Assembly (NCBI GenBank): GCA_963775685.1
Contig: CAVZJV010000014.1
Location: 1,376,001-1,440,000, forward strand
Length of the DNA: 64,000 bases
Source of the DNA: Candidatus Bathyarchaeota archaeon
GTDB taxonomy: Archaea; Thermoproteota; Bathyarchaeia; Bathyarchaeales; Bathycorpusculaceae
Direction of reading: 5' to 3'
The position numbers and the translations under genes are program-made. This document shows, in pieces, positions 9,085-38,646 of this stretch. A model generated the notes under the pieces. That model had not been told where the DNA came from and searched no databases. It was given only the letters and a program-made list of their open reading frames with translations. Positions within the stretch are counted from its first letter, which is position 1, and every line of letters starts with the position of its first letter.

Positions 9085-9957
9085 TTATTTTTCTGTGGAT
9101 TCCAGCATTTTATACATGGTTTCATAGGATTCGGCAAAGTCGCAGTCGAATTCTTTAAGCTTCTTTTTTAGCCGCTCCATTCGGTTGACGATTGCTTTCG
9201 TGTCTTTGTTTTTAATTAAGGTGAGCAGTTCTTGGGCTTTAGCCATGAAGGTATCTTCGATTTTGTCCAATTCCTGCAGGTTCGTTTGTACGGCAGCGTA
9301 GAGATCGGGGGTTTCCATCGCCGTTGCTTCTGCCAGCGTGAAGAGCATTCGGTAGGTGGTGCCTGCTACTTTTTTGGTTTCGTGCAAGTTTTTCTGTTCC
9401 AGCAAGGTTTCGCATGCTACTAAGCCTAAAAAGTGTGGCAGTCCCAAAACTACTGACATTAATTCATCATGCTTCTTGGGAGTCATAATGAAAACGTGTG
9501 CTTCTTCCTTCTCGAGCAACTGCTTGAATTTTTCCGCAAACTCATGTTCTTTCGCATTCGTTGGAGTCAAGACATATGCCTTGTGTTTGACGCCGTTACT
9601 TCCCGGACCAAAAACAGGGTGCGTACCCAACACCGTTGCTTCTTTGATGTATTGGTGCATGGTGTTAACGGGTGTTTCCTTTATCGAGGCTATGTCAATG
9701 ACAACCTGTCCTTTATGCAATACTGGGCTGATTGTTTTAACGACCTCTTCGATGGCGTTTATGGATACACAAAGGTAAATTTGGTCGGCCTCTTGGACGG
9801 CTTCTTGAAAGTTCGTGGTTAAATCAACAAGTAAGTCTTTCAGATTTTCGAGTTTCTCTTTTTTTCTATCCGCTAAAATTACATCGTAATCTTTTGAGAG
9901 GAAAAATTTGGCGAACCAAACGCCCATTTTCCCCGCGCCGATTACGGCAACCCTCAT
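9085..9957 (-). CDS. tyrA: Prephenate/arogenate dehydrogenase
   Basis: GAGKMG Rossmann motif, DIASIK, HPVFGP and HDELMSVVLGLPH. Confidence 0.94.
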   Translation of the reverse strand: MRVAVIGAGKMGVWFAKFFLSKDYDVILADRKKEKLENLKDLLVDLTTNFQEAVQEADQIYLCVSINAIEEVVKTISPVLHKGQVVIDIASIKETPVNTMHQYIKEATVLGTHPVFGPGSNGVKHKAYVLTPTNAKEHEFAEKFKQLLEKEEAHVFIMTPKKHDELMSVVLGLPHFLGLVACETLLEQKNLHETKKVAGTTYRMLFTLAEATAMETPDLYAAVQTNLQELDKIEDTFMAKAQELLTLIKNKDTKAIVNRMERLKKKLKEFDCDFAESYETMYKMLESTEK

Positions 9958-11033
9958 TTATTGACCTCGCAGATTTTATTCAGCCCTGTCTCGATTTGGT
10001 CGTCTGGAGCGGTTAGAGAAATGCGAAAGTGTTCAGGGTAGTTACCAAATGATGTGCCTGGAGCAACAGCAACGCCTTTGTCAAGTAGGTCTAGTGTGAA
10101 CTTTTCGCCGTCTAAACCTTCGAGCTTAGGAAACACATAAAATGGCGCGTCGGGTTTAGTGAATTTGAATCCTGCGGCGGAGAGTTTGGTACAGGCTAGG
10201 TCTGCGCGTTGTTTGTATTTTGCTTTGATGGCAGATGCAATTTGCTTGTGAAGTTCTAAGCCTTTAAGGGCGGCGTCCTGAATGAAGACTGGAATGTTGT
10301 TGATGGTGATTTGGTTGAGTTTGGTTATGTTATCTATGACCATTTTGTTTGCTACCAGGTAGCCGATGCGCCAACCAGTCATGGTGAAGGTCTTTGAGAA
10401 ACCGTTGGAGAGGATATGTTTGCATTCACCGTCGTAGTCGAGTATGCTTTTGGTTTTCACAAAGCTGATTGCTCCATAGACTTCGTCGGAGAGGATAGTA
10501 ACTCCTTTCTGGTTAGCTAATTCGACGACGCCGTCGAGAGTTTTGGAGTCCATGACTTTGCTTGTAGGATTGTTTGGGTTGTTGAGAATAATCATTTTTG
10601 TGTCTTTGTCAATTAAGCTCTCAAGCTTGTCGAGGTCAATTTTCCAACCTTCTGCCATTTCCGTCGGCAGCAGCTTGGTTTTCGCGCCAAGGCTCTTTGC
10701 GATTAAATCGTAAGCTGTCCAGTATGGCGTGGGGATGATAACGTTACCTCCGTTTTTGAGCATCAAAAACATCGTGGAGAATATTCCCCATTTAGAACCT
10801 GGCGTTATCACGACGTTTTCTGCTTCAACGCCGTGTACTTCAGCGATTTTCTGCCGTAGCCTAAGCTCACCATAAGAAGAGGCATACTTAGTTTTGCCTG
10901 CCTTCATTGAAGCGTATGCTGCTTCGACGATTTCAGGCGGCGTAGCCATATCTGGGTCACCAAGGTTTAGTCGAATGATTTTTTTTCCTTCACTTTCCAG
11001 TTTAAGGGCTTTCTCGTTTATCTCATAGAGCAT
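9954..11033 (-). CDS. PLP-dependent class I/II aminotransferase, probably the aromatic amino acid aminotransferase
   Basis: NNPNNPT, SDEVY and SKTFTMTGWRIG motifs. Start placed at ATG 11033 behind GGAGAG. Lies between chorismate mutase and tyrA. Confidence 0.88.
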   Translation of the reverse strand: MLYEINEKALKLESEGKKIIRLNLGDPDMATPPEIVEAAYASMKAGKTKYASSYGELRLRQKIAEVHGVEAENVVITPGSKWGIFSTMFLMLKNGGNVIIPTPYWTAYDLIAKSLGAKTKLLPTEMAEGWKIDLDKLESLIDKDTKMIILNNPNNPTSKVMDSKTLDGVVELANQKGVTILSDEVYGAISFVKTKSILDYDGECKHILSNGFSKTFTMTGWRIGYLVANKMVIDNITKLNQITINNIPVFIQDAALKGLELHKQIASAIKAKYKQRADLACTKLSAAGFKFTKPDAPFYVFPKLEGLDGEKFTLDLLDKGVAVAPGTSFGNYPEHFRISLTAPDDQIETGLNKICEVNK

Positions 11034-11061
11034 ACAGTTTGGACTCTCCGTTAGGAGCGCT

Positions 11062-11322
11062 TTATTCTTGAACGGCAATGCACATATTAACTATTTCGCG
11101 GTAAACCGCTTCTACTTGACTAGAATTAAGACCTAATTGGGAGGTTTTGTCTTTTACGCGCTTGTAAACATCATTTTCTCTAGACTTATCTCGAATGGGT
11201 TTACCCTGTTTTTTCTTGGCGGCCCCGATTGCTTTGCAAATCTTTACCCGTTCGCAGAGGGCAATTAGAATTTGGTTGTCGATTTCATCAACCTGTTTTC
11301 TTAGCAAGGGGATTTCGTTCAT
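11062..11322 (-). CDS. aroQ: Chorismate mutase (AroQ class)
   Basis: LRKQVDEIDNQILIALCER...IRDKSRE pattern; 86 aa; operon context. Confidence 0.92.
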   Translation of the reverse strand: MNEIPLLRKQVDEIDNQILIALCERVKICKAIGAAKKKQGKPIRDKSRENDVYKRVKDKTSQLGLNSSQVEAVYREIVNMCIAVQE

Positions 11323-11324
11323 GG

Positions 11325-12431
11325 TTAGTGCTCCTTGAGGACTTTTGGTATGTACCCAGCGCGGATGAGGTGGTCAGCTAAGGTTATGGCGGTTGCTGCT
11401 TCGATGGCGAGCACAGCTTTTGGAACCACACAAGGGTCGTGTCTACCTTTAACGCTTAGAGCGGAATTTTCCATCGTGCACATGTTAACGGTTTTCTGTT
11501 CCTTGGAAATGGAGGGTGTGGGTTTTATCGCTACTCTGATCAGGATTGGCATTCCGCTTGACAATCCGCCCAAGATGCCGCCTGCGTTCTCGGTTGAAGT
11601 GGCAACCTTGCCTTTTTTGATAAGGAAGGCGTCGTTGTTCTCTGACCCCCGCAACTTCGCAGCGTCAAAGCCAGCACCGAACTCGACACCTTTCACTGCA
11701 GGGACAGCAAACATCGCCTTTGCTAAATCTGCATCCAATGAGTCAAACGACGGCTCACCAATTCCAACAGGCATGTTGAGCGCTGCACATTCCACTATAC
11801 CGCCTAAACTGTCCCCTTCTTTTTTAGCTTCAACAATGGCTTCCTCCATCTTTCCTGCGCAAACTAAGTCAGGGCACCGAGTTGCAGCTAAATATCGATT
11901 TTTGCGGATTTCCGAAGTTCTAAACTTTCTATCAGTCTTGACGTTACCGATGGCTAAGGTGTATGCCAAAACATCAATGTTGTATCTTCCGAGCAGTTTT
12001 TTGGCTATTGTGCCAGCCATTATGAGTGCAACTGTGACTCTTCCTGAGAAGCGCCCTCCGCCACGGTGGTCGTTAAAGCCTCCGTATTTAATTCGCGCCG
12101 GATAATCAGAGTGCCCAGGTCTTGGCAAATCCTTTATTGCCTCATAATCGCTTGGCTGAGTTTCCTTATTCTCCACCATCAAGGCGATTGGAGCCCCAGT
12201 GGTGAATCCGTTGAAAAATCCACTTAGGATTTTGGCAACGTCTTTCTCGACTCGCTCAGAAACAATCTTGGACTCCGCTGGAATTCTGCGATCAAGGTCC
12301 TCCTGAAAATCAGCTTCCGAAAGCGGCAAGCCTGCTGGGCAGCCATCCACAACTACTCCGATTACTTTGCCATGGCTCTCCCCAAACGTGGCAACTGTGA
12401 ATTCTTTACCTATCGAATTTCCCGCCAACAA
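11325..12431 (-). CDS. aroC: Chorismate synthase
   Basis: TFGESHG, PRPGHSD, GGGRFSGR, KPTPSI and GRHDPC motifs. Confidence 0.97.
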   Translation of the reverse strand: MLAGNSIGKEFTVATFGESHGKVIGVVVDGCPAGLPLSEADFQEDLDRRIPAESKIVSERVEKDVAKILSGFFNGFTTGAPIALMVENKETQPSDYEAIKDLPRPGHSDYPARIKYGGFNDHRGGGRFSGRVTVALIMAGTIAKKLLGRYNIDVLAYTLAIGNVKTDRKFRTSEIRKNRYLAATRCPDLVCAGKMEEAIVEAKKEGDSLGGIVECAALNMPVGIGEPSFDSLDADLAKAMFAVPAVKGVEFGAGFDAAKLRGSENNDAFLIKKGKVATSTENAGGILGGLSSGMPILIRVAIKPTPSISKEQKTVNMCTMENSALSVKGRHDPCVVPKAVLAIEAATAITLADHLIRAGYIPKVLKEH

Positions 12432-13701
12432 CGTTAGCTCCTATTTGTCTTAGATGAGTGAAGAACTGCGGATAAGACTTTCTGACGCACTCTGCGTTTT
12501 GAATTGTGGTTTCTCCTTCGGCGCCTAAAGCGGCGATTGTGCATGCCATGGCGATTCGATGGTCGTTGTGTGGATCGATGGTTACTCCATGCAAGCGGTT
12601 GCTGCCCTCGATGAGTAAGCCGTCGTTTTCTAAGCCGATTTGAGCGCCCATCTTTGAGAGTTCAGCAAATAACGATTGGAGCCTATCTGACTCCTTGAAC
12701 CTAAGCCTTTGTGCGCCGAAAATGTGAGAAGTGCCTTTTGCGTAGCATGCGAGAGCGGCGATGGCTGGAACAAGGTCAGGAATGTTTTTGGCATCTACTT
12801 CTACGGGTGTAAGTGGAGTTCCTGAACCTTCAATTTCAACGTTGTCCACGCAGACTTTTCCGTTGACGCCCATGTGCTTTAAGGTGCCTATAATCGCTTT
12901 GTCTCCCTGAACGGTCTCGTAGTCAAGGTTGCTAATTTGAACATTCGAGGTAGTTATTGCTGCAGCGGCTAAGAGAAAAGCAGCGGAGGAGAAATCGCCT
13001 GGAACTCTGCCATCTTGGGGTGTGTAGGTTTGGTTCGCTGGGATATGAATGTGGTTTTCATGGGCAGGCACCCTAATTCCATGGTGAACAAGCACTGCCT
13101 CGGTCATTTTAACGTAATCTGCAGATTCCAACGGCGAAGTCAGCATTATTTCCGTGTCCACTTCGGCCATTGGACAAGCAAACATCAAGCCAGAAATAAA
13201 CTGTGAACTCACATCGCCCGCAACGGAAGTCTCGCCGCCAACAATGCCGCCGCCCTCCACAAAAACCGCGTCTTTGTCACCAAGTTTTCCAACGCGCACT
13301 TTGGCGCCGAGTTCTTTGAGGCTAGCTAAAAGTGGTTCCACAGGTCGCTTCTCAATAGAGCCCCTAAACACCAAAGTAGAAGAACCATCTGCCAGCGCAG
13401 CTACGGGAATCATGAAACGCAATGTTGCCCCTGACTCTCTGCAGTCAATTGGTTCTTTTGCGCTCTTAAGCGCTGTGCCTTCGATTGTCCAGCAACCTTC
13501 CGCAGTCTTGACTTTTGCCCCTAAAGCAGTGACTGCCCCAAGCGTGGCTTCGGTATCATCTGACAAAAGAGGATTAGAAACTTTTGAAACTCCATGGGAA
13601 AGTGCAGCGGCTATTACCATTCGTTGAGTATAAGACTTAGATGACGGCGCACAAACTTGCCCGCTTAACTTTTCAGTTTTTTTAATTGTTACATCTGTCA
13701 T
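12406..13701 (-). CDS. aroA: 3-phosphoshikimate 1-carboxyvinyltransferase (EPSP synthase)
   Basis: PSSKSYTQR, SSQFISG, RLRFKESDR, DHRIAM and KSYPQF motifs. Confidence 0.97.
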   Translation of the reverse strand: MTDVTIKKTEKLSGQVCAPSSKSYTQRMVIAAALSHGVSKVSNPLLSDDTEATLGAVTALGAKVKTAEGCWTIEGTALKSAKEPIDCRESGATLRFMIPVAALADGSSTLVFRGSIEKRPVEPLLASLKELGAKVRVGKLGDKDAVFVEGGGIVGGETSVAGDVSSQFISGLMFACPMAEVDTEIMLTSPLESADYVKMTEAVLVHHGIRVPAHENHIHIPANQTYTPQDGRVPGDFSSAAFLLAAAAITTSNVQISNLDYETVQGDKAIIGTLKHMGVNGKVCVDNVEIEGSGTPLTPVEVDAKNIPDLVPAIAALACYAKGTSHIFGAQRLRFKESDRLQSLFAELSKMGAQIGLENDGLLIEGSNRLHGVTIDPHNDHRIAMACTIAALGAEGETTIQNAECVRKSYPQFFTHLRQIGANVVGGKFDR

Positions 13702-13703
13702 TG

Positions 13704-14576
13704 TTAGAGCACCTTTGCTTTTTCACTGTTCAACTGTGCCTGAATTATTTCGCCGTCATACCTTTCCAAAGCAGCCTTCACTGCATCTAACTTGTCAGTT
13801 GGAACTACTGCGGAAACAGCAGGTCCTTTGCCGCAAAGCCCAGTCGCTACGGCTCCAGCAGCCAACGCATCTATCGCGATTGTGGTGTTGAGGTTTGAGG
13901 CTGAAGAGTAGATTAAACCGTTAAGCGTTAATGCCTCCCAAACTTTTCCTTCCAAAGCCTTGTCGAATGCGATTTGTACGAGCGGTTTAACAGTTTTGAG
14001 CCTGTTCACATTTGAGTCAGCCGTGTAGGCTTTTTGGGGTGGAACATGAAACAACACTGTTAAATCCTTAGGTAAGGGTAGCTGTTTGATGATTTCACGT
14101 TTGAAGTTATCGGTAATTACTATGCCGCCAAAATAGGATGCACACGCATCATCAAAAGCGCCAGTAACTGTGACCTTTGAATCAAAAGCAGCATCGACAC
14201 CCAACTTTACAATTTCCAAATCATCAAGAGGTTTGCCAAGTGCCGCCGTTGTTGCAAGTGCGGTGGCGTTTGCTGCTACGCTGCTGCTTTTAAGTCCTTT
14301 AGCGATTGGGATGTTTGATAGGGTTTTTATTTTTGCGCCAAAACTTTTGTCTAAACCAAACCTTTGCAGAACTCTTGCCGCGGTTTTTTCTATTAGGAGC
14401 GTGCTTTCTTTTGGGTCTGAAACTATCTCAGCCCTAATAACGCCTAGTTCATCCATTAAATTAACTTCAGCTCTGGTCCACAAATCAACCCCAAACGCTG
14501 CACCCTTACCCAGCGCAATCGCGTTCACGATGGTTGCAGCCCCATGAGCAATCGCTACACCTCTACCCGTTGCCAC
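13704..14576 (-). CDS. aroK: Archaeal shikimate kinase (GHMP family)
   Basis: GAATIVNAIA, PIAKGLKSSS and TVTGAFDDA motifs. Confidence 0.94.
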   Translation of the reverse strand: MATGRGVAIAHGAATIVNAIALGKGAAFGVDLWTRAEVNLMDELGVIRAEIVSDPKESTLLIEKTAARVLQRFGLDKSFGAKIKTLSNIPIAKGLKSSSVAANATALATTAALGKPLDDLEIVKLGVDAAFDSKVTVTGAFDDACASYFGGIVITDNFKREIIKQLPLPKDLTVLFHVPPQKAYTADSNVNRLKTVKPLVQIAFDKALEGKVWEALTLNGLIYSSASNLNTTIAIDALAAGAVATGLCGKGPAVSAVVPTDKLDAVKAALERYDGEIIQAQLNSEKAKVL

Positions 14577-14579
14577 AGT

Positions 14580-15437
14580 TTACACCTTCATCAAATAATT
14601 AAGCGCCGCCTGCCTCATAACTTCAACTGGAGCAGACTTACCTGTCCAAAGTTCAAACGACGCTGCACCTTGATAAATCAACATCTCAACCCCGCTGACC
14701 ACCTTAGCTCCCGCAGCTTTCGCCTCATTAACAAGTTTGGTCTCAAGCGGATTGTATACTATATCCATCACAGACAAATCCGGTCTTAAAAGTTTAGGAT
14801 TTACAAGGCTTTCGTCTGCTTTTGGTTTCATCCCAATTGAAGTAGCATTTATGAGAATGTCAGAGTCTTGGAGGTTCTGTTGGATTTCTTTTGGTGAAAG
14901 GGAACCTGCAACTATTTTTTTGTTCGCAGTCTTTTCAAGCAGTCTGGCTAATCCTTGAGCTTGTTTTACGGTTCGGTTCAGGACCGCGAGTTCATCGGCT
15001 TCTTTAGCCATCGTGTACGCTATGGCTCTTGCAGCTCCGCCTGCACCCAGCAACAGAACCTTTCTGCCCTTCGGCTCCACTCCATTTTCTCTTAGAGCTT
15101 TTAGGGCGCCTACGCCATCTGTGTTGAAGCCGAAAAGTTTGCTATCCTTATTTAGGATTGTATTGACCGAATTTATGATTTGAGCAGATAGGTCTGTTCG
15201 GTCTAAATACTTCAACACTGTACTTTTATGCGGCATAGTTACGTTTAAGCCCCGTAGGTTTAGGGCGCGCATGCCATTTACTGCGTTTTCCACTGCATTT
15301 AGCTTTACTTTGAAAGCTAAAAATGCATAGTCAAGGTTGAGAGCGTTAAAGGCTGCATTGTGTATAATGGGGCTCAAGGTATGCTCTATTGGGTCACCGA
15401 TGACTCCGCAAACCCTAGTTTTCCCCGTAATAGGCAT
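14580..15437 (-). CDS. aroE: Shikimate dehydrogenase
   Basis: HTLSP, NVTMPHK, NTDGVG, GAGGAARA, NATSIG and DIVYNP motifs. Confidence 0.97.
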   Translation of the reverse strand: MPITGKTRVCGVIGDPIEHTLSPIIHNAAFNALNLDYAFLAFKVKLNAVENAVNGMRALNLRGLNVTMPHKSTVLKYLDRTDLSAQIINSVNTILNKDSKLFGFNTDGVGALKALRENGVEPKGRKVLLLGAGGAARAIAYTMAKEADELAVLNRTVKQAQGLARLLEKTANKKIVAGSLSPKEIQQNLQDSDILINATSIGMKPKADESLVNPKLLRPDLSVMDIVYNPLETKLVNEAKAAGAKVVSGVEMLIYQGAASFELWTGKSAPVEVMRQAALNYLMKV

Positions 15438-16120
15438 TATTTTATCCCCAAAAGTCCATAAGCAGTGCGCATTTCGGTTATGCTCATCTGCCCAGCCGCG
15501 GTTTCACTGTCAGGCTCAACCGAGGCGAAAGTGAAGAAAGCGCCAAATGCAGGTGAAAGCAACCTTGAGATTTTGCCTTGATCGCCCATGCAGAAGCAAA
15601 CCAGCTTTGCCTTGGCTGAAGCAAAGGAAACAAAGTTCAGAATAGGCAGGTTGTCTTCAACTTGTTTTGCTGTGAGCACGATTTTGCAGACGCTCGCCCC
15701 GCTGGCAATCTCCTCGTCAAGGATCTTTTCCATGGTAGAAACTGCTAAAAGTCCATCATAATTATGATAAGAAACGATGGGTTTTGCCCCTAGAGCTCGT
15801 AGTTTTCCAATTGTTTCGTCCCGTTTAGGGCTGGAAAAATCAACATCCACATATTCGAAGCCATTTTTGGCCGCATCAATAAGGGTCTGTTGACGTTCAA
15901 TTTCGGTTCCTGAAAAGTAACCTTTTTCGTTTTTGAGTTTGTTTGTAGCGATAAAGGGCAGTTTTGTGCTTTTGGCGAAGTCTTGTAGGTTTCGTGATTC
16001 TTCGAGGTAATCGAGACGAACTTCTACGAGGTCTGCTTGGGAACTCTCTGCCTTCTCAATGAGCTTTAGCGCTTCCGCCATGTTTTTTGGGAGAATCGAA
16101 ACACAGATTCTCACAGTCAC
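15437..16120 (-). CDS. aroD: 3-dehydroquinate dehydratase type I
   Basis: EVRLD, SYHNY, KIV and CMGDQGKISRL motifs; position in the operon. Confidence 0.92.
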   Translation of the reverse strand: MTVRICVSILPKNMAEALKLIEKAESSQADLVEVRLDYLEESRNLQDFAKSTKLPFIATNKLKNEKGYFSGTEIERQQTLIDAAKNGFEYVDVDFSSPKRDETIGKLRALGAKPIVSYHNYDGLLAVSTMEKILDEEIASGASVCKIVLTAKQVEDNLPILNFVSFASAKAKLVCFCMGDQGKISRLLSPAFGAFFTFASVEPDSETAAGQMSITEMRTAYGLLGIK

Positions 16121-17157
16121 TTTTCAATCACCGTTTCTTCAGGCACAGATATGCCGAAGTGTCTTCCTCCCTTCGCAGCTAAATGCACAAGAACTTCATC
16201 GTTGGGTTTGAGTTCGGTAACTGGTTTTGAGCCTTTAGACGTGACTATGCGTATGGTTTCTGCATTCTGCAAGATAGTTTTAATTTTGGTGCCGTCGGCC
16301 TCGGCTTCGATGAGGATGAGTGGACGGAACTCGATTTTGGATCTACCCACGTTTGTGATTCGGACATTACCTTCTCGACTAACGATTAGAACTTCGTCAC
16401 CAGCTTTGAGTTCAGAGAGGTAGCGTGTACCCTGAATGGAGGTTAAGGTGTACTGAGATGCTGGTCCAGCGTTCACTCGGAAAGGCCTGGATTGCACGTA
16501 GGGGTTCTCGTTAACTTCAGCCTCAACAAGGAAGAACCCTGCGGATTGGCATCCGACAAGCATCCCTTCACCTGGAACCATCAAATCAACAGTGTCTACA
16601 CAGACGCGTGCACCTGAGCCGATGGGTTTAATGGACAAGATTTTGGCTGTGGTAATCGACATTTTGGGCATTTGATTCTTGACGAGCTTGATGGTTTTTT
16701 CCAGCTCAGCTACGTTTCTGGTCTTTAGCAAAACACCGTCTGTGCCCAATTCAAGAGCTTCCAAAACCAACTTAGCATCCTCAGCCGTGGTCACCTCTGC
16801 GATTAGGGTGCTTTTTCCTCTGCCTTTGGCTATGAGGTTTTCAAGCGGAATCACTCGCCAATCTTGACAGTTTATTATGACATAGTCAACGCCAAGTTCA
16901 GCGGCTTTGGCTGCCCTGTTTTCGTCTTCTTTACCTTGGATTATTACTTTTAAGGCTGTTTTTTTGCCCTCTACCTTTAGCTGGGCAATTTTTTTCTCGC
17001 TCAAGTCAGTGAGAAAAATAATTTCCATTTTGCCTTGGCGGTTGCTGGCTTGGTCGCCATCCAAGATCGCGTCTGCGTTTTCATGGGCAAGGCTAAGTAA
17101 ACCTTCCTTTTCTTGAGCGGAAGCATTTTGTGGAATTTCGAGCCAGAGTTCTTTCAA
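16117..17157 (-). CDS. aroB': 3-dehydroquinate synthase II (archaeal AroB')
   Basis: DWRVIPLENLIA, RVCVDT, RPFRVNAG, YLSELKAG, LQNAETI and GRHFG motifs. Confidence 0.95.
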   Translation of the reverse strand: MKELWLEIPQNASAQEKEGLLSLAHENADAILDGDQASNRQGKMEIIFLTDLSEKKIAQLKVEGKKTALKVIIQGKEDENRAAKAAELGVDYVIINCQDWRVIPLENLIAKGRGKSTLIAEVTTAEDAKLVLEALELGTDGVLLKTRNVAELEKTIKLVKNQMPKMSITTAKILSIKPIGSGARVCVDTVDLMVPGEGMLVGCQSAGFFLVEAEVNENPYVQSRPFRVNAGPASQYTLTSIQGTRYLSELKAGDEVLIVSREGNVRITNVGRSKIEFRPLILIEAEADGTKIKTILQNAETIRIVTSKGSKPVTELKPNDEVLVHLAAKGGRHFGISVPEETVIEK

Positions 17158-17945
17158 TATTTTTCACCAAAAATCTTTAGCGCTTGCTCAACAGATGCAC
17201 CTTTGTGGACAATGGCAGAGAGCGCTCTTGAAATTTGTGTTGGATTGTCGCATTGGAACATGTTACGTCCAATGGAAAGCCCTGCTGCACCTGCTTCCAA
17301 GGCGTCGCTGGTGGTTTGAAGCACTTCCTCTAGGGAATTGCATTTTGGTCCACCTGCAATAACAACTGGGATTGGGCAACTTTCGATGACTGCTTTGAAA
17401 GTTTCGATGCTTCCTGTGTAGTTTGTTTTGATTATGTCTGCGCCAAGTTCTGCGCCGATTCTCGCTGCATGCGCCACCAATTCGGGTGAATGTTCGTTTG
17501 GGATTTTTGGTCCACGCGGGTACATCATCGCTAAGAGAGGAACACCAAAGGCTTCGCATTCTTCGGCGACTTTGCCTAGGTTTTGTAGCATTTTATCTTC
17601 GTCTTGAGCGCCGACGTTGACATGAACGGATACTGCGTCTGCGCCGATGCGTATGGCTTCTTGCACGCTGCATACTTGGACCTTGCCGTTTACGTTGGGG
17701 CTAAGGTTTGACATGCCAGATAACATTACGATTAAGCCTGCGTCTCCGGTGTCGACTCGTTTGGCGATGCCTTTGTGGACAAGGATGGCATCAACTCCAC
17801 CTTTCACAAGCTGGTTGGTTATGGTTTGCATGTTAGTTATGCCTTGGATGGGCCCAACTGTTACACCATGATCCATAGGTACAATTACTGTGCGGTTGTC
17901 TTGCTGCATGATTTTTTTTAGTCTGCGGGTTTTGCCTTCATTCAT
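17154..17945 (-). CDS. aroA': 2-amino-3,7-dideoxy-D-threo-hept-6-ulosonate (ADH) synthase, DhnA-type aldolase
   Basis: VPMDHG, MMYPRG, ELGADIIKT, IAGGPK and GRN motifs; adjacent to DHQ synthase II. Confidence 0.92.
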   Translation of the reverse strand: MNEGKTRRLKKIMQQDNRTVIVPMDHGVTVGPIQGITNMQTITNQLVKGGVDAILVHKGIAKRVDTGDAGLIVMLSGMSNLSPNVNGKVQVCSVQEAIRIGADAVSVHVNVGAQDEDKMLQNLGKVAEECEAFGVPLLAMMYPRGPKIPNEHSPELVAHAARIGAELGADIIKTNYTGSIETFKAVIESCPIPVVIAGGPKCNSLEEVLQTTSDALEAGAAGLSIGRNMFQCDNPTQISRALSAIVHKGASVEQALKIFGEKY

Positions 17946-17957
17946 GTCTTTTCCACT

Positions 17958-19202
17958 CTAATGTTGTTTAAGTGAGTTTTTAATTAACTTTAATGCTTTC
18001 TCTTTCTCATTCCAATCTACAAACAGCAAAATGCTCGACGTAATAGTTAGGATGCCAGAGATGTTTATGCCGTTAAGGCGTAAATCCTCACTGATTTTGC
18101 CGATGATGCCATGCGTTTCCTCCAAGCCCACACCGCTGGTTTTGATGAAGACAAGGTCCTTTTTAACTGCCATAGCTATGGTTTCTTCGTTGCCGATAGT
18201 TATATTGTGGATTTGGTTGAAGAGGACATCGATATTTTTCACCTGCGGCACATAGAGAATGATTGAGTTTGTGTTCATAGACATGCCCAATAACATCGAG
18301 TTTTCCTTAACTCTCTCAACCATCTCGGTGATAACTTTAGTATTAGCAGACATACCGTTTCCGATAACGGTGATTTCCGCCACAGGGGTAGGATGAGCAA
18401 TTTCCGCGTCAAGTTCGGTGCCTAATCCACCGGTGATGATTGTCCCTGCACGACTCAAATCGCCATGAGCATTGCTGATGACTTTAACATCGATATCTTT
18501 TGGCTTGTATTTGAGAGCTTTACTGTGAATAAATTTTGCACCTGAATCTGCTAAGCCAACAAGCGTATTTACGTTGATTGTTGGGAGAAGTTTGGGCGAA
18601 GCAATTATTTTCGGGTCGCCAGACATTATGCCATCTGCATTCGTTACCAGCACAACTTGGTTTGCATTTAAGCCCTGTGCCAGCAAGAACGCAGTAGTGT
18701 CGCTTCCGCCTCTGCCAAGGGTAGTAATTTTGCCATCTTTCGTTTTGCCCACGAATCCAGCTATGACCGGTACGGTTCCTGCCTCAACAAGCGGAAGGAT
18801 GCATTCCTTAATATTTTTCTCGCATTCCTTGACAAGGGGGTTGGCGTTCTGGAACGAGTCATCAGTGATTATTGGCCACTTACTGTCCATGGGGTCAAAG
18901 TAACAAGCATCAACACCATTGTTCCGAAGAGCAGTCGCAAAGATTCGTACACTTGTGCGTTCACCCATCGACAAAATGTCATCTAACTCCTGTTTAGCTA
19001 ATTTTCCGTTCGAAGTGTTCTTTGCGGTAATCAATAGCACATCGGTTGTTTTCCCCATGGCTGAAACTGCTACAGCGATTTTTGTACCTTTTTTGGCTTC
19101 ATTCACCACTGCCTTGACCGCTTTTAGAAGTCTTTCGTGATCAGATAGGCTGGAGCCGCCAAATTTAACGACAATGGTTTGGTTAGAGGAATGTTTTGCC
19201 AT
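17958..19202 (-). CDS. Aspartate kinase, first gene of the aromatic operon, with divergent ACT domains
   Basis: VVKFGGSS, VSAMGKTTD, SMGER and TTLGRGGSD motifs. Start placed at ATG 19202 behind GGGTG; ATG 19217 is the alternative. Confidence 0.9.
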   Translation of the reverse strand: MAKHSSNQTIVVKFGGSSLSDHERLLKAVKAVVNEAKKGTKIAVAVSAMGKTTDVLLITAKNTSNGKLAKQELDDILSMGERTSVRIFATALRNNGVDACYFDPMDSKWPIITDDSFQNANPLVKECEKNIKECILPLVEAGTVPVIAGFVGKTKDGKITTLGRGGSDTTAFLLAQGLNANQVVLVTNADGIMSGDPKIIASPKLLPTINVNTLVGLADSGAKFIHSKALKYKPKDIDVKVISNAHGDLSRAGTIITGGLGTELDAEIAHPTPVAEITVIGNGMSANTKVITEMVERVKENSMLLGMSMNTNSIILYVPQVKNIDVLFNQIHNITIGNEETIAMAVKKDLVFIKTSGVGLEETHGIIGKISEDLRLNGINISGILTITSSILLFVDWNEKEKALKLIKNSLKQH

Positions 19203-19222
19203 ATGTTTTACACCCATGTTTT

Positions 19223-19260
19223 GCCCAGAACTTTTCTTAAAAATTTTTTCAGTTCTGGGC
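19223..19260 (-). promoter_or_regulatory. Leader RNA hairpin, 10-bp perfect stem
   Basis: GCCCAGAACT (N18, A/T-rich) AGTTCTGGGC. It starts at the base after the leader stop codon and ends 20 nt before the kinase ATG at 19202. Confidence 0.75.
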
Positions 19261-19347
19261 TTAAGGAAAATGGTAATAATAAAAGCAGTAATCGAAGCTC
19301 TGGAACGGCGCCGCATTGCCTGAGACTATGTTTTTTGCATTGAACAT
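19261..19347 (-). CDS. Phe/Tyr-rich leader peptide (candidate attenuator peptide), 28 aa
   Basis: ATG TTC AAT...TTC GAT TAC TGC TTT TAT TAT TAC CAT TTT CCT TAA gives MFNAKNIVSGNAAPFQSFDYCFYYYHFP. Eight of the last 14 codons are Phe or Tyr. It lies between the promoter and the aromatic operon. Confidence 0.78.
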   Translation of the reverse strand: MFNAKNIVSGNAAPFQSFDYCFYYYHFP

Positions 19348-19384
19348 TGTGCTTCGAAACCTGTTGAATGCTTCACCTCACAAA

Positions 19385-19400
19385 AAATATAAGCGTTTCG
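19385..19400 (-). promoter_or_regulatory. BRE/TATA promoter of the aromatic leader and operon
   Basis: Minus strand reads CGAAACGC-TTATATTT, ending 37 nt before the leader ATG. Confidence 0.6.
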
Positions 19401-19515
19401 GATTTGGACTCACCAAATATAGGATCACTCTATCTCTTGAAAAAGCCAATAGCCAATAAATTCAAAATCTCAACAACTATGATTATGTTATTTTTTGTAA
19501 TTTAATTGAAGTAGC

Positions 19516-21171
19516 TTAACTTTGAGGGACGGCTTCAGTGCTCTTTTCACCCGCGGAGGATACAATGGCTGGAGGCAAGATTTTTCTTTGGATAAGGGCT
19601 TTTACTGCTTCTGAAAGAACGTTACACGCCTGTTTTCTTACCTCTGCGGAGTTGTCTACTTCCTTGTTTGCAATGGACGTCTCTAAATTCTGCATCTTAC
19701 CAATATTTGCCCGTTTGTTTCTCTCATAATCTTCATGGAGTTTTTGTAGTTCGGTACCTGAATTCTGCTCTGCTAACGCCAAGCTCCTTCTTGCATCATC
19801 TAATTTCTTGATAATTTCTATTTGTCTTTCTTCTTCGGCTACTTTCTTGAGGAAGTGAAGGCTACTTATTTTGGTTTGCCGAATTTGAGCAAGCTCTTCT
19901 TCAATTTACATACATTCTTGGTAAAGAAATCAATAGCAGAGTCTCTTTTTTCTTTGAGCTCGCTCGTCTGCGCTTCATACTCAGCGTCAATGTCCCCAAC
20001 TTTTCCTGAATCAATAGAAGAATTACCAACTGCCAAAGCCAACCTCTTCTCAGCAGCATTCAGTTTCTGAGTAAGCTCGGCTTGTTTTTGTTCTTTTGCC
20101 CTTTTCTTGAGTGGATGCCGATAACTCGTTTTTATCTGCTCCACCTCGGCAAGTTCTTCTTTTAAAATGTGCACGTTTCTGAACAAGTAATCTATAGCGC
20201 TCTTTCCTCTAACTACAAAGTCTTTAGTTTGGGCAGCATATCCAGCGTCAATCTCGCCTAGTAAATATCTATTCTCTACAAGTGTCCTTGCTGAGACTTC
20301 AATTTCTGCTTCGTTTGTCAGTCGCTTGGCTAGTTCATCTTCGATTTCGCTGAAAATGTGGTTACATGCTTCGGTAAAAGTTTCGTCTGACCCTATGACG
20401 TCGCTTGATTCAAAGGATAGAATAATCTGCCTAACGTTAACCATCCAATCGTCAAAGTATTTGCTAACAGGCGACTGCTCAAAGACTTCCCCCCCAAGCA
20501 TTTCTAAATAATTCAAAGTCTCAGCACTAATTGCCTCAATCTTCGCGTTCTGCTCCCCTAAGTCAATGGGCGCTCGGGCTTTCTTGCGGTATTTCTTCTT
20601 CTATCTCTTCAGTGACAATAGATTCTGGTAAGTTAACTGGAATTTCAACTGAAATAACTAAAAGGGGTTCGGGTGCTACAGGTGCTTGAAGTTTTGGAAT
20701 TTCCGCAATCGCTTGAATCTCTTTTGGCGTCTCAACTTTATGTTGGTTTTGGACCATTAAGCTATTAAGTTTTGGAATAATGTCCTCAACTACTATCATC
20801 AAGAGATCGCGGTTTTCGCTTTCATTTAACTCCCAAACTTCTCGACGACCACCCTCAAAGGTTAAAGTGAGGTGCCCTGTGAGGTCGATGTATGCTTGGG
20901 AGGCTTCCTTCAATTTGAATGGAAGCACAGATGTGGAAACCGAAATTGAAGAAAACATCGGCGCCAAATACCTCAGCGACTCAAAAAATTTAGCCACCAA
21001 AACCTTCTCCTCAGACAATAACTTCCCGATCTGCTCAATATCCTCTTCTACAAACGCGAAGGTCTCAGCGATTTCTTGGACACTGATTGACTTTCCGCTT
21101 ACAACATGTGGACTTATGACTAAAGCATCTGCTGGAGATGTTGTTACCGGCACCTGAGTCATGACATTCAA
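19516..21171 (-). pseudogene. Roughly 550-aa coiled-coil protein split by two frameshifts
   Basis: Three tandem ORFs (20563-21171, 19866-20516, 19516-19782) join by frame changes. An internal repeat (AIDY/FF...LKK...KL...LALA.NS) spans the second break. Confidence 0.65.
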
Positions 21172-37236: not shown

Positions 37237-38646
37237 ATGAAGATAGTGATGAAGTTCGGCGGAACAAGTGTAGGCACGGGCGAAAACATTCGTCACGTAG
37301 CCGACTCAGTATCCCAGTACGCTAAGAACGACTGCAAAGTCGCAGTTGTGGTTTCAGCGTTGGCAGGTGTCACCAACAGTTTGTTTGAGGTTGCATGCCA
37401 AGCTAAGAAAAGAGAAGAAAAACAAATCGAAACCTTCACAAAGCATTTGCTCAAAAAACACCAAGAGGCAATCGCAACCGCAATTTCGAGCAAACAAATC
37501 CAAAAAGAAGTTACCGAAATCACCGAAAAAACAATCTCAGAACTAGAAAAAGTATTAACTGGCATATGTTACGTGGGCGAACTCACCCCTAAATCCATAG
37601 ACTACGTTGCCTCGTTCGGTGAACGCCTCTCAGCACCCATCGTTTGGGGAGCCCTAAAAGACCACAAACTTGAAACTCAGTTCTTCACAGGCAAAGAAGC
37701 AGGGATAGTCACCGACTCAAATTTTGGCGAAGCCAACCCACTGATGAACTTTACCACTCACCTAATCCGAGAAAGAATAGGACCACTATTTGAAAAGGGC
37801 ACGATTCCAGTGGTCACAGGTTTCATCGCAGCAAACCAAGACGGCGTCATAACAACTGTTGGGCGAGGCGGCTCAGACTACACCGCAACCATATTGGGCG
37901 TTGCCTTGCAGGTTGATGAGGTCTGGATATGGACCGACGTCGAAGGCATAATGACCACCGACCCCAAAATTGTCCCTGCCGCGAGAATGTTGCCACAGCT
38001 GAGTTATCAGGAAGCGGCGGAAATGGCGATTTTCGGCGCCAAAGCTATGCACCCACGTGCGCTAGGACCAGTCATAAAAGAAAACATTCCTGTACGAATC
38101 CGAAGCGTATTCCACCCTGAAAACGACGGCACACTTATAACCAAAGACTCAGCCGCTAACGAAACCAAACCAGTCAAGGCAGTAGCCATGATAAAGGACG
38201 TTGCCATGTTAAACGTTAACGGAGCCACCATGGTGGGCGCACCGGGAAGTTACGCCAAAGTTTTCGACATTTTGGGCAGAAACAGCATAAACGTCATGAT
38301 GATTTCCACAGCCATCTCAGAAGCAAACATCTCCATGATAATCAAACGCGCACTTTTAGGCAGGGCAATCAGCAATCTAGAAATTGCATTGCAGGAAAGG
38401 GGAGGCTTAGTGAACGAAGTTAGCGCAGAAGACGACGTTGCAGTCATCGCAGTCATGGGTGCCAACATGAAAGGCACACTGGGCGTTGCATCACACATCT
38501 TTAGCATTGTTGCCAAAAAAGGCATAAACATCCGTATGATTGCTCAGGGCAGTTCAGAGCTGAACATTTCGTTTGTAGTTAAAGAGAAAGATGGTATAGC
38601 TGTGGTTCGGGCTATTCACGAGGAGTTTAGTTTAGACAAAAATTAA
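37237..38646 (+). CDS. lysC: Aspartate kinase with two ACT domains
   Basis: MKFGGTSV, SFGERLS, GRGGSDYTA, WTDVEG and QGSSELNIS motifs. Confidence 0.95.
   Translation: MKIVMKFGGTSVGTGENIRHVADSVSQYAKNDCKVAVVVSALAGVTNSLFEVACQAKKREEKQIETFTKHLLKKHQEAIATAISSKQIQKEVTEITEKTISELEKVLTGICYVGELTPKSIDYVASFGERLSAPIVWGALKDHKLETQFFTGKEAGIVTDSNFGEANPLMNFTTHLIRERIGPLFEKGTIPVVTGFIAANQDGVITTVGRGGSDYTATILGVALQVDEVWIWTDVEGIMTTDPKIVPAARMLPQLSYQEAAEMAIFGAKAMHPRALGPVIKENIPVRIRSVFHPENDGTLITKDSAANETKPVKAVAMIKDVAMLNVNGATMVGAPGSYAKVFDILGRNSINVMMISTAISEANISMIIKRALLGRAISNLEIALQERGGLVNEVSAEDDVAVIAVMGANMKGTLGVASHIFSIVAKKGINIRMIAQGSSELNISFVVKEKDGIAVVRAIHEEFSLDKN

Follow-up and report, generated by a model that had tools for sequence, protein, structure and literature searches.

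We analysed a window of 64,000 nucleotides (nt) from a Candidatus Bathyarchaeota archaeon (GenBank assembly GCA_963775685.1, contig CAVZJV010000014.1, positions 1,376,001 to 1,440,000) and, within it, the leader of an operon for aromatic amino acid biosynthesis (aro operon), in which a short open reading frame (ORF) rich in phenylalanine and tyrosine codons is followed, from the base after its stop codon, by an RNA hairpin. The genes around the leader all lie on the minus strand, which is the mRNA strand on which the pairings were read. In window coordinates, the locus comprises the following features.

19384..19400, minus: predicted archaeal promoter, with a B recognition element (BRE), CGAAA, and the TATA-like sequence CTTATATTTT
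19351..19357, minus: A box, UCGAAGC, in the 5′ untranslated region (5′UTR, about 12–15 nt), ending 3 nt before the leader AUG
19261..19347, minus: leader ORF, 28 codons plus UAA (UAA at 19263–19261)
19295..19304, minus: segment (b), UCCAGAGCUU, codons F15–F18, able to pair with the 3′-arm region of the hairpin
19292..19298, minus: B box, GCUUCGA, codons S17-F18-D19, the 3′ strand of a helix with the A box
19267..19284, minus: U-rich codon tail with two U4 tracts, at 19284–19281 (Phe22-Tyr23) and 19270–19267 (His26-Phe27)
19251..19260, minus: hairpin 5′ arm, GCCCAGAACU, beginning at the base after UAA
19233..19250, minus: hairpin loop, 18 nt, A/U-rich, A6 then U5 (U5 at 19243–19239)
19223..19232, minus: hairpin 3′ arm, AGUUCUGGGC, pairing with the 5′ arm
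19211..19215, minus: Shine-Dalgarno (SD)-like GGGUG of the kinase gene, 7 nt after the hairpin
17958..19202, minus: aspartate kinase, first gene of the operon (NCBIfam NF005159, 383.5 bits against a cut-off of 379)
9085..17945, minus: rest of the operon, namely ADH synthase, DHQ synthase II (3-dehydroquinate synthase II), AroD, AroE, archaeal shikimate kinase, AroA, AroC, an aminotransferase and prephenate dehydrogenase

The kinase likely starts at the ATG at 19202, in agreement with its orthologues, and a further in-frame ATG lies at 19217. From the close packing of ORFs on the same strand we infer that the operon is continuous, and its gene content is that of a complete aromatic pathway operon of the archaeal type, with an aspartate kinase of its own in first place. 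A kinase at the head fits the aspartate-semialdehyde/ADH-synthase route and apparently places an aspartate-family enzyme under Phe/Tyr control. Orthologues of this kinase (E ≤ 1e-90) were found in 162 of 301 sampled genomes of the order. On the upstream side, GCTT(A/T)TAT was seen 34–38 nt before the A box in 50 of the 52 family sequences in which both motifs were found, and promoter spacing predicts a transcript start near 19363–19360, about 12–15 nt before the leader AUG.

Conservation was assessed on the upstream regions of orthologous kinase genes, 27 loci from relatives and 40 from other genera and families of the order, together with 20 further loci of the window genus obtained by a motif scan, giving 85 unique leaders in total. 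Orthologous leader ORFs of 24–30 codons recurred in the kinase upstream regions of relatives. The window peptide ends SFDYCFYYYHFP-UAA, and 7 of its last 12 codons specify Phe or Tyr (range 5–9, median 8 among the 85 leaders); the last aromatic codon stood 1–3 codons before the stop in 85/85. All gap runs within the ORF columns of alignment A4 were multiples of three (62/62), so that insertions and deletions keep the frame, which indicates that the ORF is coding. The aromatic enrichment was kept in clades of different nucleotide sequence.

The arms of the hairpin form a perfect 10-bp stem around the 18-nt loop, with an energy of about −17.7 kcal/mol, and the 65 nt from the stop codon fold at −20.3 (z = −5.05 compared to 100 dinucleotide shuffles). 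It is the sole inverted repeat with separated arms among the 25 longest of the 37 repeats of at least 10 nt in the window, and its motif is single copy in the 3.06-Mb genome. An earlier model-made annotation of this DNA, hereafter the first-pass annotation, had described this stem together with two other leader pairings, (b) and (c), and all three were present exactly as claimed, with the hairpin at the base after UAA. Its remark that AAAAC, instead of a U tract, follows directly 3′ of the hairpin and that the U run (U5) is within the loop was likewise confirmed. A scan of positions 17000–21000 with Rfam covariance models at E ≤ 10 gave no family matching the element. It returned five chance-level matches, none of which reached its gathering score or belonged to a leader family, and the only one overlapping the element was noise (RF02637, 12.8 bits against a gathering score of 440). 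The palindrome AAAAATTTTT is exact within the loop (window 19239–19248), and an A-run followed by a U-run is the usual loop pattern in the window genus and its neighbours, at times forming an inner A-U helix. An internal promoter in the A/T-rich loop was considered and set aside, the loops of other clades being free of TATA-like sequence.

RNAalifold, when run on a 69-sequence MAFFT alignment, returned no structure because the families were out of register by 2 nt and their columns did not line up, and pairs were then counted on per-clade alignments. In the family alignment (A2, 56 of the 85 leaders) 96.4% of the cells were paired, 4 of the 10 pairs changed on both sides, and the covariation score was reached by 0/500 shuffles; sliding the partner by one column lowered pairing to about 50%. 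A 13-sequence alignment of families f7 and f6 (A3) was 84.6% paired, with three rows misaligned by one column counted as broken. The stems are clade-specific, with GCCCAGAACU in the window genus, GCCCAGGCGU/GCGUCUGGGC, GCCCAGAGACU/AGUUUCUGGGC and GCCCAGUAAGCU/AGCUUUCUGGGC in neighbours, and purine-rich/pyrimidine-rich arms in further clades, and the nine outer pairs took 37 different series among 84 leaders. In the kinase-anchored subset of the alignment (36 sequences) we counted 323 Watson-Crick, 21 G-U, 2 A-C and 14 other cells. The sense-strand hairpin was more stable than its antisense counterpart in 53/65 cases, and loops of about 12–21 nt within the family make the arm spacing variable. 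The 21 : 2 ratio of G-U to A-C cells, the sense-strand stability and the variable spacing therefore point to an RNA helix on the mRNA strand and not to a DNA operator. The opposing explanation, in which ribosomes sense nothing here, the small ORF is there by chance, and the inverted repeat serves as a DNA operator or its hairpin as a protein-binding site, could appeal to the A/T-rich loop and to six basal pairs, GCCCAG/CUGGGC, that are nearly invariant across three families, beyond what pairing needs. It is contradicted by the three observations just given, by the unrelated stems found at the same place in other clades, by the intact frame in all 62 gap runs, and by an aromatic enrichment that survives nucleotide divergence between clades, and we regard it as extremely improbable.

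A Phe/Tyr-rich ORF with a hairpin −3 to +6 nt from its stop codon was found in 64/66 unique kinase-anchored regions of the order, or in 62/66 if a folding energy of −10 kcal/mol was also demanded. The 20 motif-scan loci were not counted for presence because their selection filter required the hairpin. The two exceptions were L191, which is without a credible leader, and L166, which has a hairpin remnant. L166 (genus g47, family f1) keeps the leader ORF with the hairpin cut to a remnant of the 5′ arm, and is possibly a natural loss-of-hairpin variant. In other orders of the class, leader and hairpin were present in 12/20 regions from ten families, with positive regions in f14, f15 (weak), f16, f19, f27, f30, f32, f34 and f37, and in none of the regions from f26 (0/4) or f35 (0/4). 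The combined results from these comparisons indicate that the hairpin is a genuine RNA element, conserved and covarying, whose position is tied to the stop codon of the leader.

A covariance model of the genus hairpin gave one match per genome in 37/151 family genomes (13/70 genera), located just upstream of the kinase wherever the kinase position was known. Two genome-wide scans for units of leader plus hairpin found only the aro leader convincing, with the limit that less biased leaders would escape them, and the trp operon of the window genome had no Trp-rich leader. The single match, the lack of a second unit in these scans and the leaderless trp operon therefore suggest that the device is dedicated to the aro operon. 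One candidate for a second unit, a Tyr-rich small ORF outside the window (G000:C14:2131057-2131144 (+); L192:259-345), ends ...IIIYYYYFTYV, has a short hairpin and U5 behind it and precedes an AbrB/PhoU-like regulator-like gene; it was judged spurious because it lies upstream of a likely promoter/TATA box and before an unrelated gene. Three contigs binned as Sulfotelmatobacter, Methanocella and Nanoarchaeia metagenome-assembled genomes (L065, L081 and L108) bear a Bathyarchaeial leader, hairpin and kinase, and these placements are probably binning errors.

We then considered whether either arm has another partner in the leader. The first-pass annotation had proposed a switch between competing pairings, in which segment (b), UCCAGAGCUU (19304–19295), pairs with AAGUUCUGGG (19233–19224) through 10 bp, two of them G-U. 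In the window sequence this duplex exceeds what composition predicts (RNAduplex −13.8 kcal/mol, z = −3.42, 100 shuffles of the leader). It depends on a Gln codon (CAG) found in 4/44 genus sequences, CCAGAGC occurring only in L001, L011, L023 and L041. When the best duplex of the 3′ arm with the leader was compared to 100 shuffles in 77 leaders, the mean z was −0.11, with z < −2 in 7/77; for the 5′ arm the mean z was −0.47, with z < −2 in 3/77. Pairing (b) was rejected as a conserved switch, its partner being no better than shuffled leaders over the 77 leaders, and the competing-pairings proposal is not supported. Pairing of the A box with the distal 5′ arm (GGUUC/GAACU, about −7.8 kcal/mol, mean z −0.47) was also rejected; in the window genus it is the usual best partner, and genus g18, in which the distal stem covaries, has lost it. 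Since the hairpin arms have no conserved alternative partner, there is no bacterial-type antiterminator or anti-sequestor here.

The third pairing claimed by the first-pass annotation, complementarity (c) between the 5′UTR and codons 17–19, is kept across the family. The A box and the B box are 7-bp perfect complements, and their helix (A:B) is present in the minimum-free-energy fold of the 181-nt leader. The A box overlaps an AGGU SD-like motif of the leader, and GGTTCGAAGC or a one-base variant of it was found in 56/56 family sequences. The seven core pairs were paired in nearly all of 55 distinct rows, and the changes were mostly wobble-compatible (18 G-U cells, one compensatory C-G, and three mismatches at pair 9-76). 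The covariation check that the first-pass annotation had suggested for orthologous leaders was significant for the hairpin as described above and not significant for A:B, whose score was reached by 176/500 shuffles. Because this is within the shuffle range, the conservation of A:B is compatible with pairing and does not prove it. Codon choice at the B box was position-specific, Ser17 being AGC in 55/56 family sequences (genome usage of AGC 24%) and Phe18 being TTC (UUC) in 56/56 (genome usage of TTC 48%), which offers independent support for A:B pairing. In this family the helix between the 5′UTR and codons 17–19 would probably limit or time the loading of ribosomes on the leader. It is the candidate counterpart of the early (1:2-like) pause hairpin that keeps ribosome and polymerase in step in classical bacterial attenuators.

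The ermC 5′ stabiliser of bacteria offers a likeness for another explanation, in which a ribosome parked on the leader blocks 5′-to-3′ exonucleolytic decay, and the A:B helix and hairpin are general stabilisers or processing barriers instead of switches. The A box lies at the predicted extreme 5′ end in a conserved terminal helix, alternative structures are not needed, and the logic is right for a biosynthetic operon. Control of mRNA stability leaves unexplained why the hairpin abuts the stop codon in 64/66 regions and why U tracts are enriched in the codon tail (see below), and we consider it very unlikely.

Words of the A and B boxes also occurred elsewhere. In family f14 the post-stop hairpin (L204:374-410, L205:373-409) is made of the same words as the window B box (5′ arm) and A box (3′ arm), its 3′ arm sharing 11 identical nt with the window A box (compared with window 19361–19351 and 19299–19292), and it is followed by U5(+U4) and GGAGG. 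It seems from these sequences that the A:B helix was relocated in f14, or that a common partner recognises both. GGUUCGA-like words precede the leader AUG in f19 and f30 as well. In family f7 (L025, L172-L181), the 5′UTR has CUGGGCC/UUGGGCC immediately upstream of the leader AUG; this sequence repeats the hairpin 3′ arm and could possibly pair with the stop codon and 5′ arm as a family-specific alternative pairing.

We folded 78 leaders by partition function while masking the footprint of a ribosome (A site −15 to +12), leaving out five without a resolved kinase start, plus L179 and L191; footprint folding had been suggested by the first-pass annotation as a check on its switch. The mean hairpin probability was 0.90 without a ribosome and 0.88 with the A site on aromatic codons 4–9 before the stop. 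It fell to 0.53 with the A site 1–3 codons before the stop (0.17 for the window sequence alone), and to 0.06 on the stop codon itself. These models indicate that the hairpin is opened only by a ribosome that reaches the end of the ORF, at the last codons or the stop. As neither arm has a conserved alternative partner, the ribosome itself would be the competitor of the hairpin. In L204, a run of seven Tyr codons ends 4 codons before the stop. A ribosome starved at these codons cannot touch the hairpin and the operon is biosynthetic, so that the folded state would have to be the ON state.

A second claim of the first-pass annotation was that pairing could gate the kinase ribosome-binding site. 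The anti-SD tail is present at the 16S end of the genome, and the kinase SD sits outside the stem. Modelled SD accessibility was 0.355 in free leaders, 0.389 with a stalled ribosome and 0.398 with the ribosome on the stop codon (22 up and 11 down of 77), and an earlier, coarser folding run agreed in finding no gating by pairing. Compared to the 83 other SD-led genes of the genome, which averaged 0.28, the accessibility of the kinase SD was ordinary (0.29). In the window genus the SD paired with the codon tail with a mean probability of 0.48 in the free ensemble. Synonymously recoded tails paired more with the SD than the real tail did (real 0.348 compared to 0.299 recoded). Sequestration of the SD by the Phe/Tyr tail, of the mycobacterial type, was rejected as a selected feature, given the ordinary accessibility, the insensitivity to ribosome masks and the better pairing of recoded tails. 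None of these four tests pointed to control of the kinase SD through pairing, and that claim is not supported. Ribosome hopping, or termination and reinitiation across the hairpin, was set aside because kinase translation would then rise with leader translation, and no take-off codon with a matching landing codon was seen.

The position of the hairpin relative to the SD was constrained, with a median distance of 4 nt (5th–95th percentile −5 to 7) in clades with unrelated stems, and a median of 19 nt to the start codon; the same adjacency was seen in other orders. This spacing suits a form of translational attenuation in which the folded hairpin, 1–8 nt before the kinase SD, would sterically hinder the 30S subunit until the GC-rich base of the stem is melted by a ribosome dwelling at codons −1 to −3, as in cat/cmlA-type control. 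The presence of an aromatic codon within 3 codons of the stop in every leader fits such a scheme, as does the drop in hairpin probability to 0.53 (window 0.17) at −3 to −1. A ribosome on most of the aromatic codons would nevertheless not reach the stem, and in replete cells each fast-moving ribosome would open the hairpin as well. With the SD outside the stem, its modelled accessibility hardly moving between ribosome positions and ordinary for the genome, and recoded tails pairing more with it and not less, this explanation appears unlikely to us.

The Phe/Tyr codons themselves were rich in U tracts. Phe22 was TTT (UUU) in 53/56 and Tyr23 TAT (UAU) in 52/56 family sequences. Over the last nine codons, TTT outnumbered TTC by 146 to 28 for Phe, compared to 52% TTT genome-wide, and TAT outnumbered TAC by 226 to 104 for Tyr, compared to 42% TAT genome-wide, the U-ending codons being preferred in every clade. 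U4 tracts in these codons averaged 1.52 compared to 0.74 expected by synonymous recoding, and exceeded that expectation in 74/84 leaders, where the null is uniform codon choice and the sequences are related. At least two U4 tracts were present in the last nine codons plus stop of 35/44 genus leaders, and a run of at least four U in the loop or in the next 9 nt after the hairpin in 71/85 leaders. According to passages of PMC8716108, aCPSF1 binds RNA of at least 18 nt that contains about two U4 tracts, and termination efficacy follows their number. The window leader agrees with the sequence criterion, though only with that criterion, given in the same passages (RNA of at least 18 nt, with two or more U4 in the last 30 nt or so before the 3′ end), and the genome encodes an aCPSF1/FttA orthologue (907 bits compared to a cut-off of 580). 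In the discussion of PMC11616081 it is proposed that FttA and a coupled ribosome exclude each other sterically at Spt5.

Gene ends of the window genome were of the oligo-T kind. T runs of at least five were found within 60 nt of 34% of 790 gene ends compared to 6% of intragenic controls, and only 4% of those 790 gene ends fold at ≤ −15 kcal/mol. By this comparison the T5 of the loop, unlike the hairpin, is the standard kind of gene-end signal in this genome. As gene ends are oligo-T without a hairpin, a bacterial-type intrinsic terminator is unlikely here, and a consensus terminator scan of 18900–19800 found 0 sites, in line with the first-pass annotation. Its statement that there is no U-tailed terminator held for the window genus, where at least three U within 9 nt after the stem were seen in 0/44 sequences, and did not extend to related families, in which U4–U6 directly follow the hairpin and precede the SD (f11, distant f1 genera and L025; in f14 a 14-bp stem precedes U5 and U4). 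These U tails, the stop codon abutting the stem and the lower hairpin probability for stalls at −3 to −1 would be expected of bacterial-style termination, in which the hairpin, with a U tract in several clades, is a terminator or pause site, and read-through occurs when the 5′ arm is covered by a ribosome that has stalled on the last aromatic codons, as in steric antitermination of the pyrBI type. The window genus is without a U tail and without terminator-like sites, and the hairpin-less gene ends of its genome point the same way. Stalls at most Phe/Tyr codons, at least 4 upstream of the stop and including those of L204, leave the terminator free, so that starvation would shut a biosynthetic operon off, with no antiterminator to correct this logic. 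We therefore judge bacterial-style termination quite improbable.

Together, these results suggest that the region is probably a ribosome-sensed regulatory leader of an archaeal aromatic amino acid operon. For its output we tentatively favour a ribosome-gated hairpin that controls termination of the U-tract/aCPSF1 type by hiding or exposing U-rich RNA, as the first-pass annotation had suggested, with folded being ON and open being OFF, although the probability we give to this part is clearly lower. When Phe or Tyr is scarce, a ribosome arrested on these codons at least 4 before the stop would leave the hairpin folded. The folded hairpin would tie up the untranslated gap of 46–74 nt and keep U-rich RNA, namely the two codon U4 tracts and the U run in or after the hairpin, from the oligo-U/aCPSF1/FttA machinery, and this shielding would last until a ribosome loads on the kinase SD 1–8 nt behind the stem. 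With plentiful Phe and Tyr, the ribosome would run to the stop and unzip the hairpin. A ribosome on the last codons or the stop would hold the 5′ arm in its mRNA channel so that the hairpin stays open. The loop, the 3′ arm and the U tracts would then emerge unpaired behind a polymerase without a coupled ribosome, and the transcript would be terminated or cut. A bolder version extends to the whole of Bathyarchaeia and describes an antiterminator-free attenuator whose UUU/UAU sensing codons double as the aCPSF1/FttA U-tract signal: a stalled ribosome would hide the terminator signal that it is reading, the stop-abutting hairpin would shield the rest, and a ribosome at the stop would unzip the hairpin and hand the transcript to the termination factor. 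In this general form we hold it to be doubtful.

Several points weigh against ribosome-gated U-tract termination. The only post-stop U run of the genus is in the loop, upstream of the 3′ arm, so that the hairpin cannot have formed when polymerase crosses it, and under starvation a similar length of RNA is exposed until the 3′ arm has been transcribed. With ample Phe and Tyr, a closely coupled ribosome should protect polymerase, and that would reverse the logic. The bias towards U-ending codons may reflect wobble-decoded, starvation-sensitive codons, and the tight median spacing of hairpin and SD would fit a translational role equally well. Moreover, 14/85 leaders have no run of at least four U in the loop or just behind the hairpin, the sequences are related so that counts are not independent, and 20 of the 85 leaders were selected for having the hairpin.

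Ribosome-mediated attenuation is a textbook bacterial mechanism. With the bacterial leader-peptide attenuators (trp, pheA, his, thr and leu, in Proteobacteria and Actinobacteria) the window leader shares a short 5′ ORF rich in codons for the pathway product that reach to within 1–3 codons of the stop, a hairpin between leader and first gene and, on our reading, the position of the ribosome as the sensed variable; the C-terminal ...F-P-stop of its peptide is one that we take to resemble the E. coli pheA leader. It differs from them in having no exclusive antiterminator, no U tail in the genus, a hairpin that touches the stop codon, no matching Rfam leader family, and a host that is an archaeon with hairpin-less oligo-T terminators. 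Its hairpin must also act positively to suit a biosynthetic operon, the reverse of a bacterial terminator. The element would work like a leader-peptide attenuator but lacks two bacterial defining features, the U-tailed terminator and the antiterminator.

Factor-dependent attenuation is known in bacteria from Rho with tnaC and mgtL-type leaders. What the aro leader is proposed to have in common with these is that the state of the leader ribosome decides the exposure of factor-binding single-stranded RNA behind an uncoupled polymerase; it would differ in that the sensing codons themselves supply part of the factor signal. The cat and erm leaders are translational attenuators that sequester the ribosome-binding site. 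Such sequestration is likewise described in bioRxiv 10.1101/834739 for mycobacterial polycysteine leaderless short ORFs, in contrast to the SD outside the stem, of ordinary accessibility and insensitive to ribosome position, found here. With archaeal aCPSF1/FttA termination, as characterised in the cited passages of PMC8716108, the leader shares U4 tracts of the bound kind and the presence of an aCPSF1 gene. A literature search found no regulated, leader-peptide-dependent use of aCPSF1/FttA and no archaeal leader-peptide or upstream-ORF attenuation, which is not proof of absence, and in a term search of a review of archaeal transcription-translation coupling (PMC8116511) the words "attenuation", "leader peptide" and "polarity" did not occur.

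Across a whole class of archaea, most of the families sampled have a leader ORF with a stop-abutting hairpin in front of the aro operon. If the bolder version given above is true, this would be the first described regulatory use of transcription-translation coupling and factor-dependent termination in Archaea. The leader is a short, mutable sequence for asking whether archaea regulate through coupling of ribosome and RNA polymerase, and offers a test of whether aCPSF1/FttA or oligo-U termination can be regulated and of how an RNA hairpin acts on the archaeal polymerase.

Elsewhere in the window, a second ORF of the aspartate kinase family was found on the plus strand at 37573–38568 (a frame of about 470 amino acids, 32% identical over query residues 65–393), and is presumably the general aspartate-pathway enzyme.

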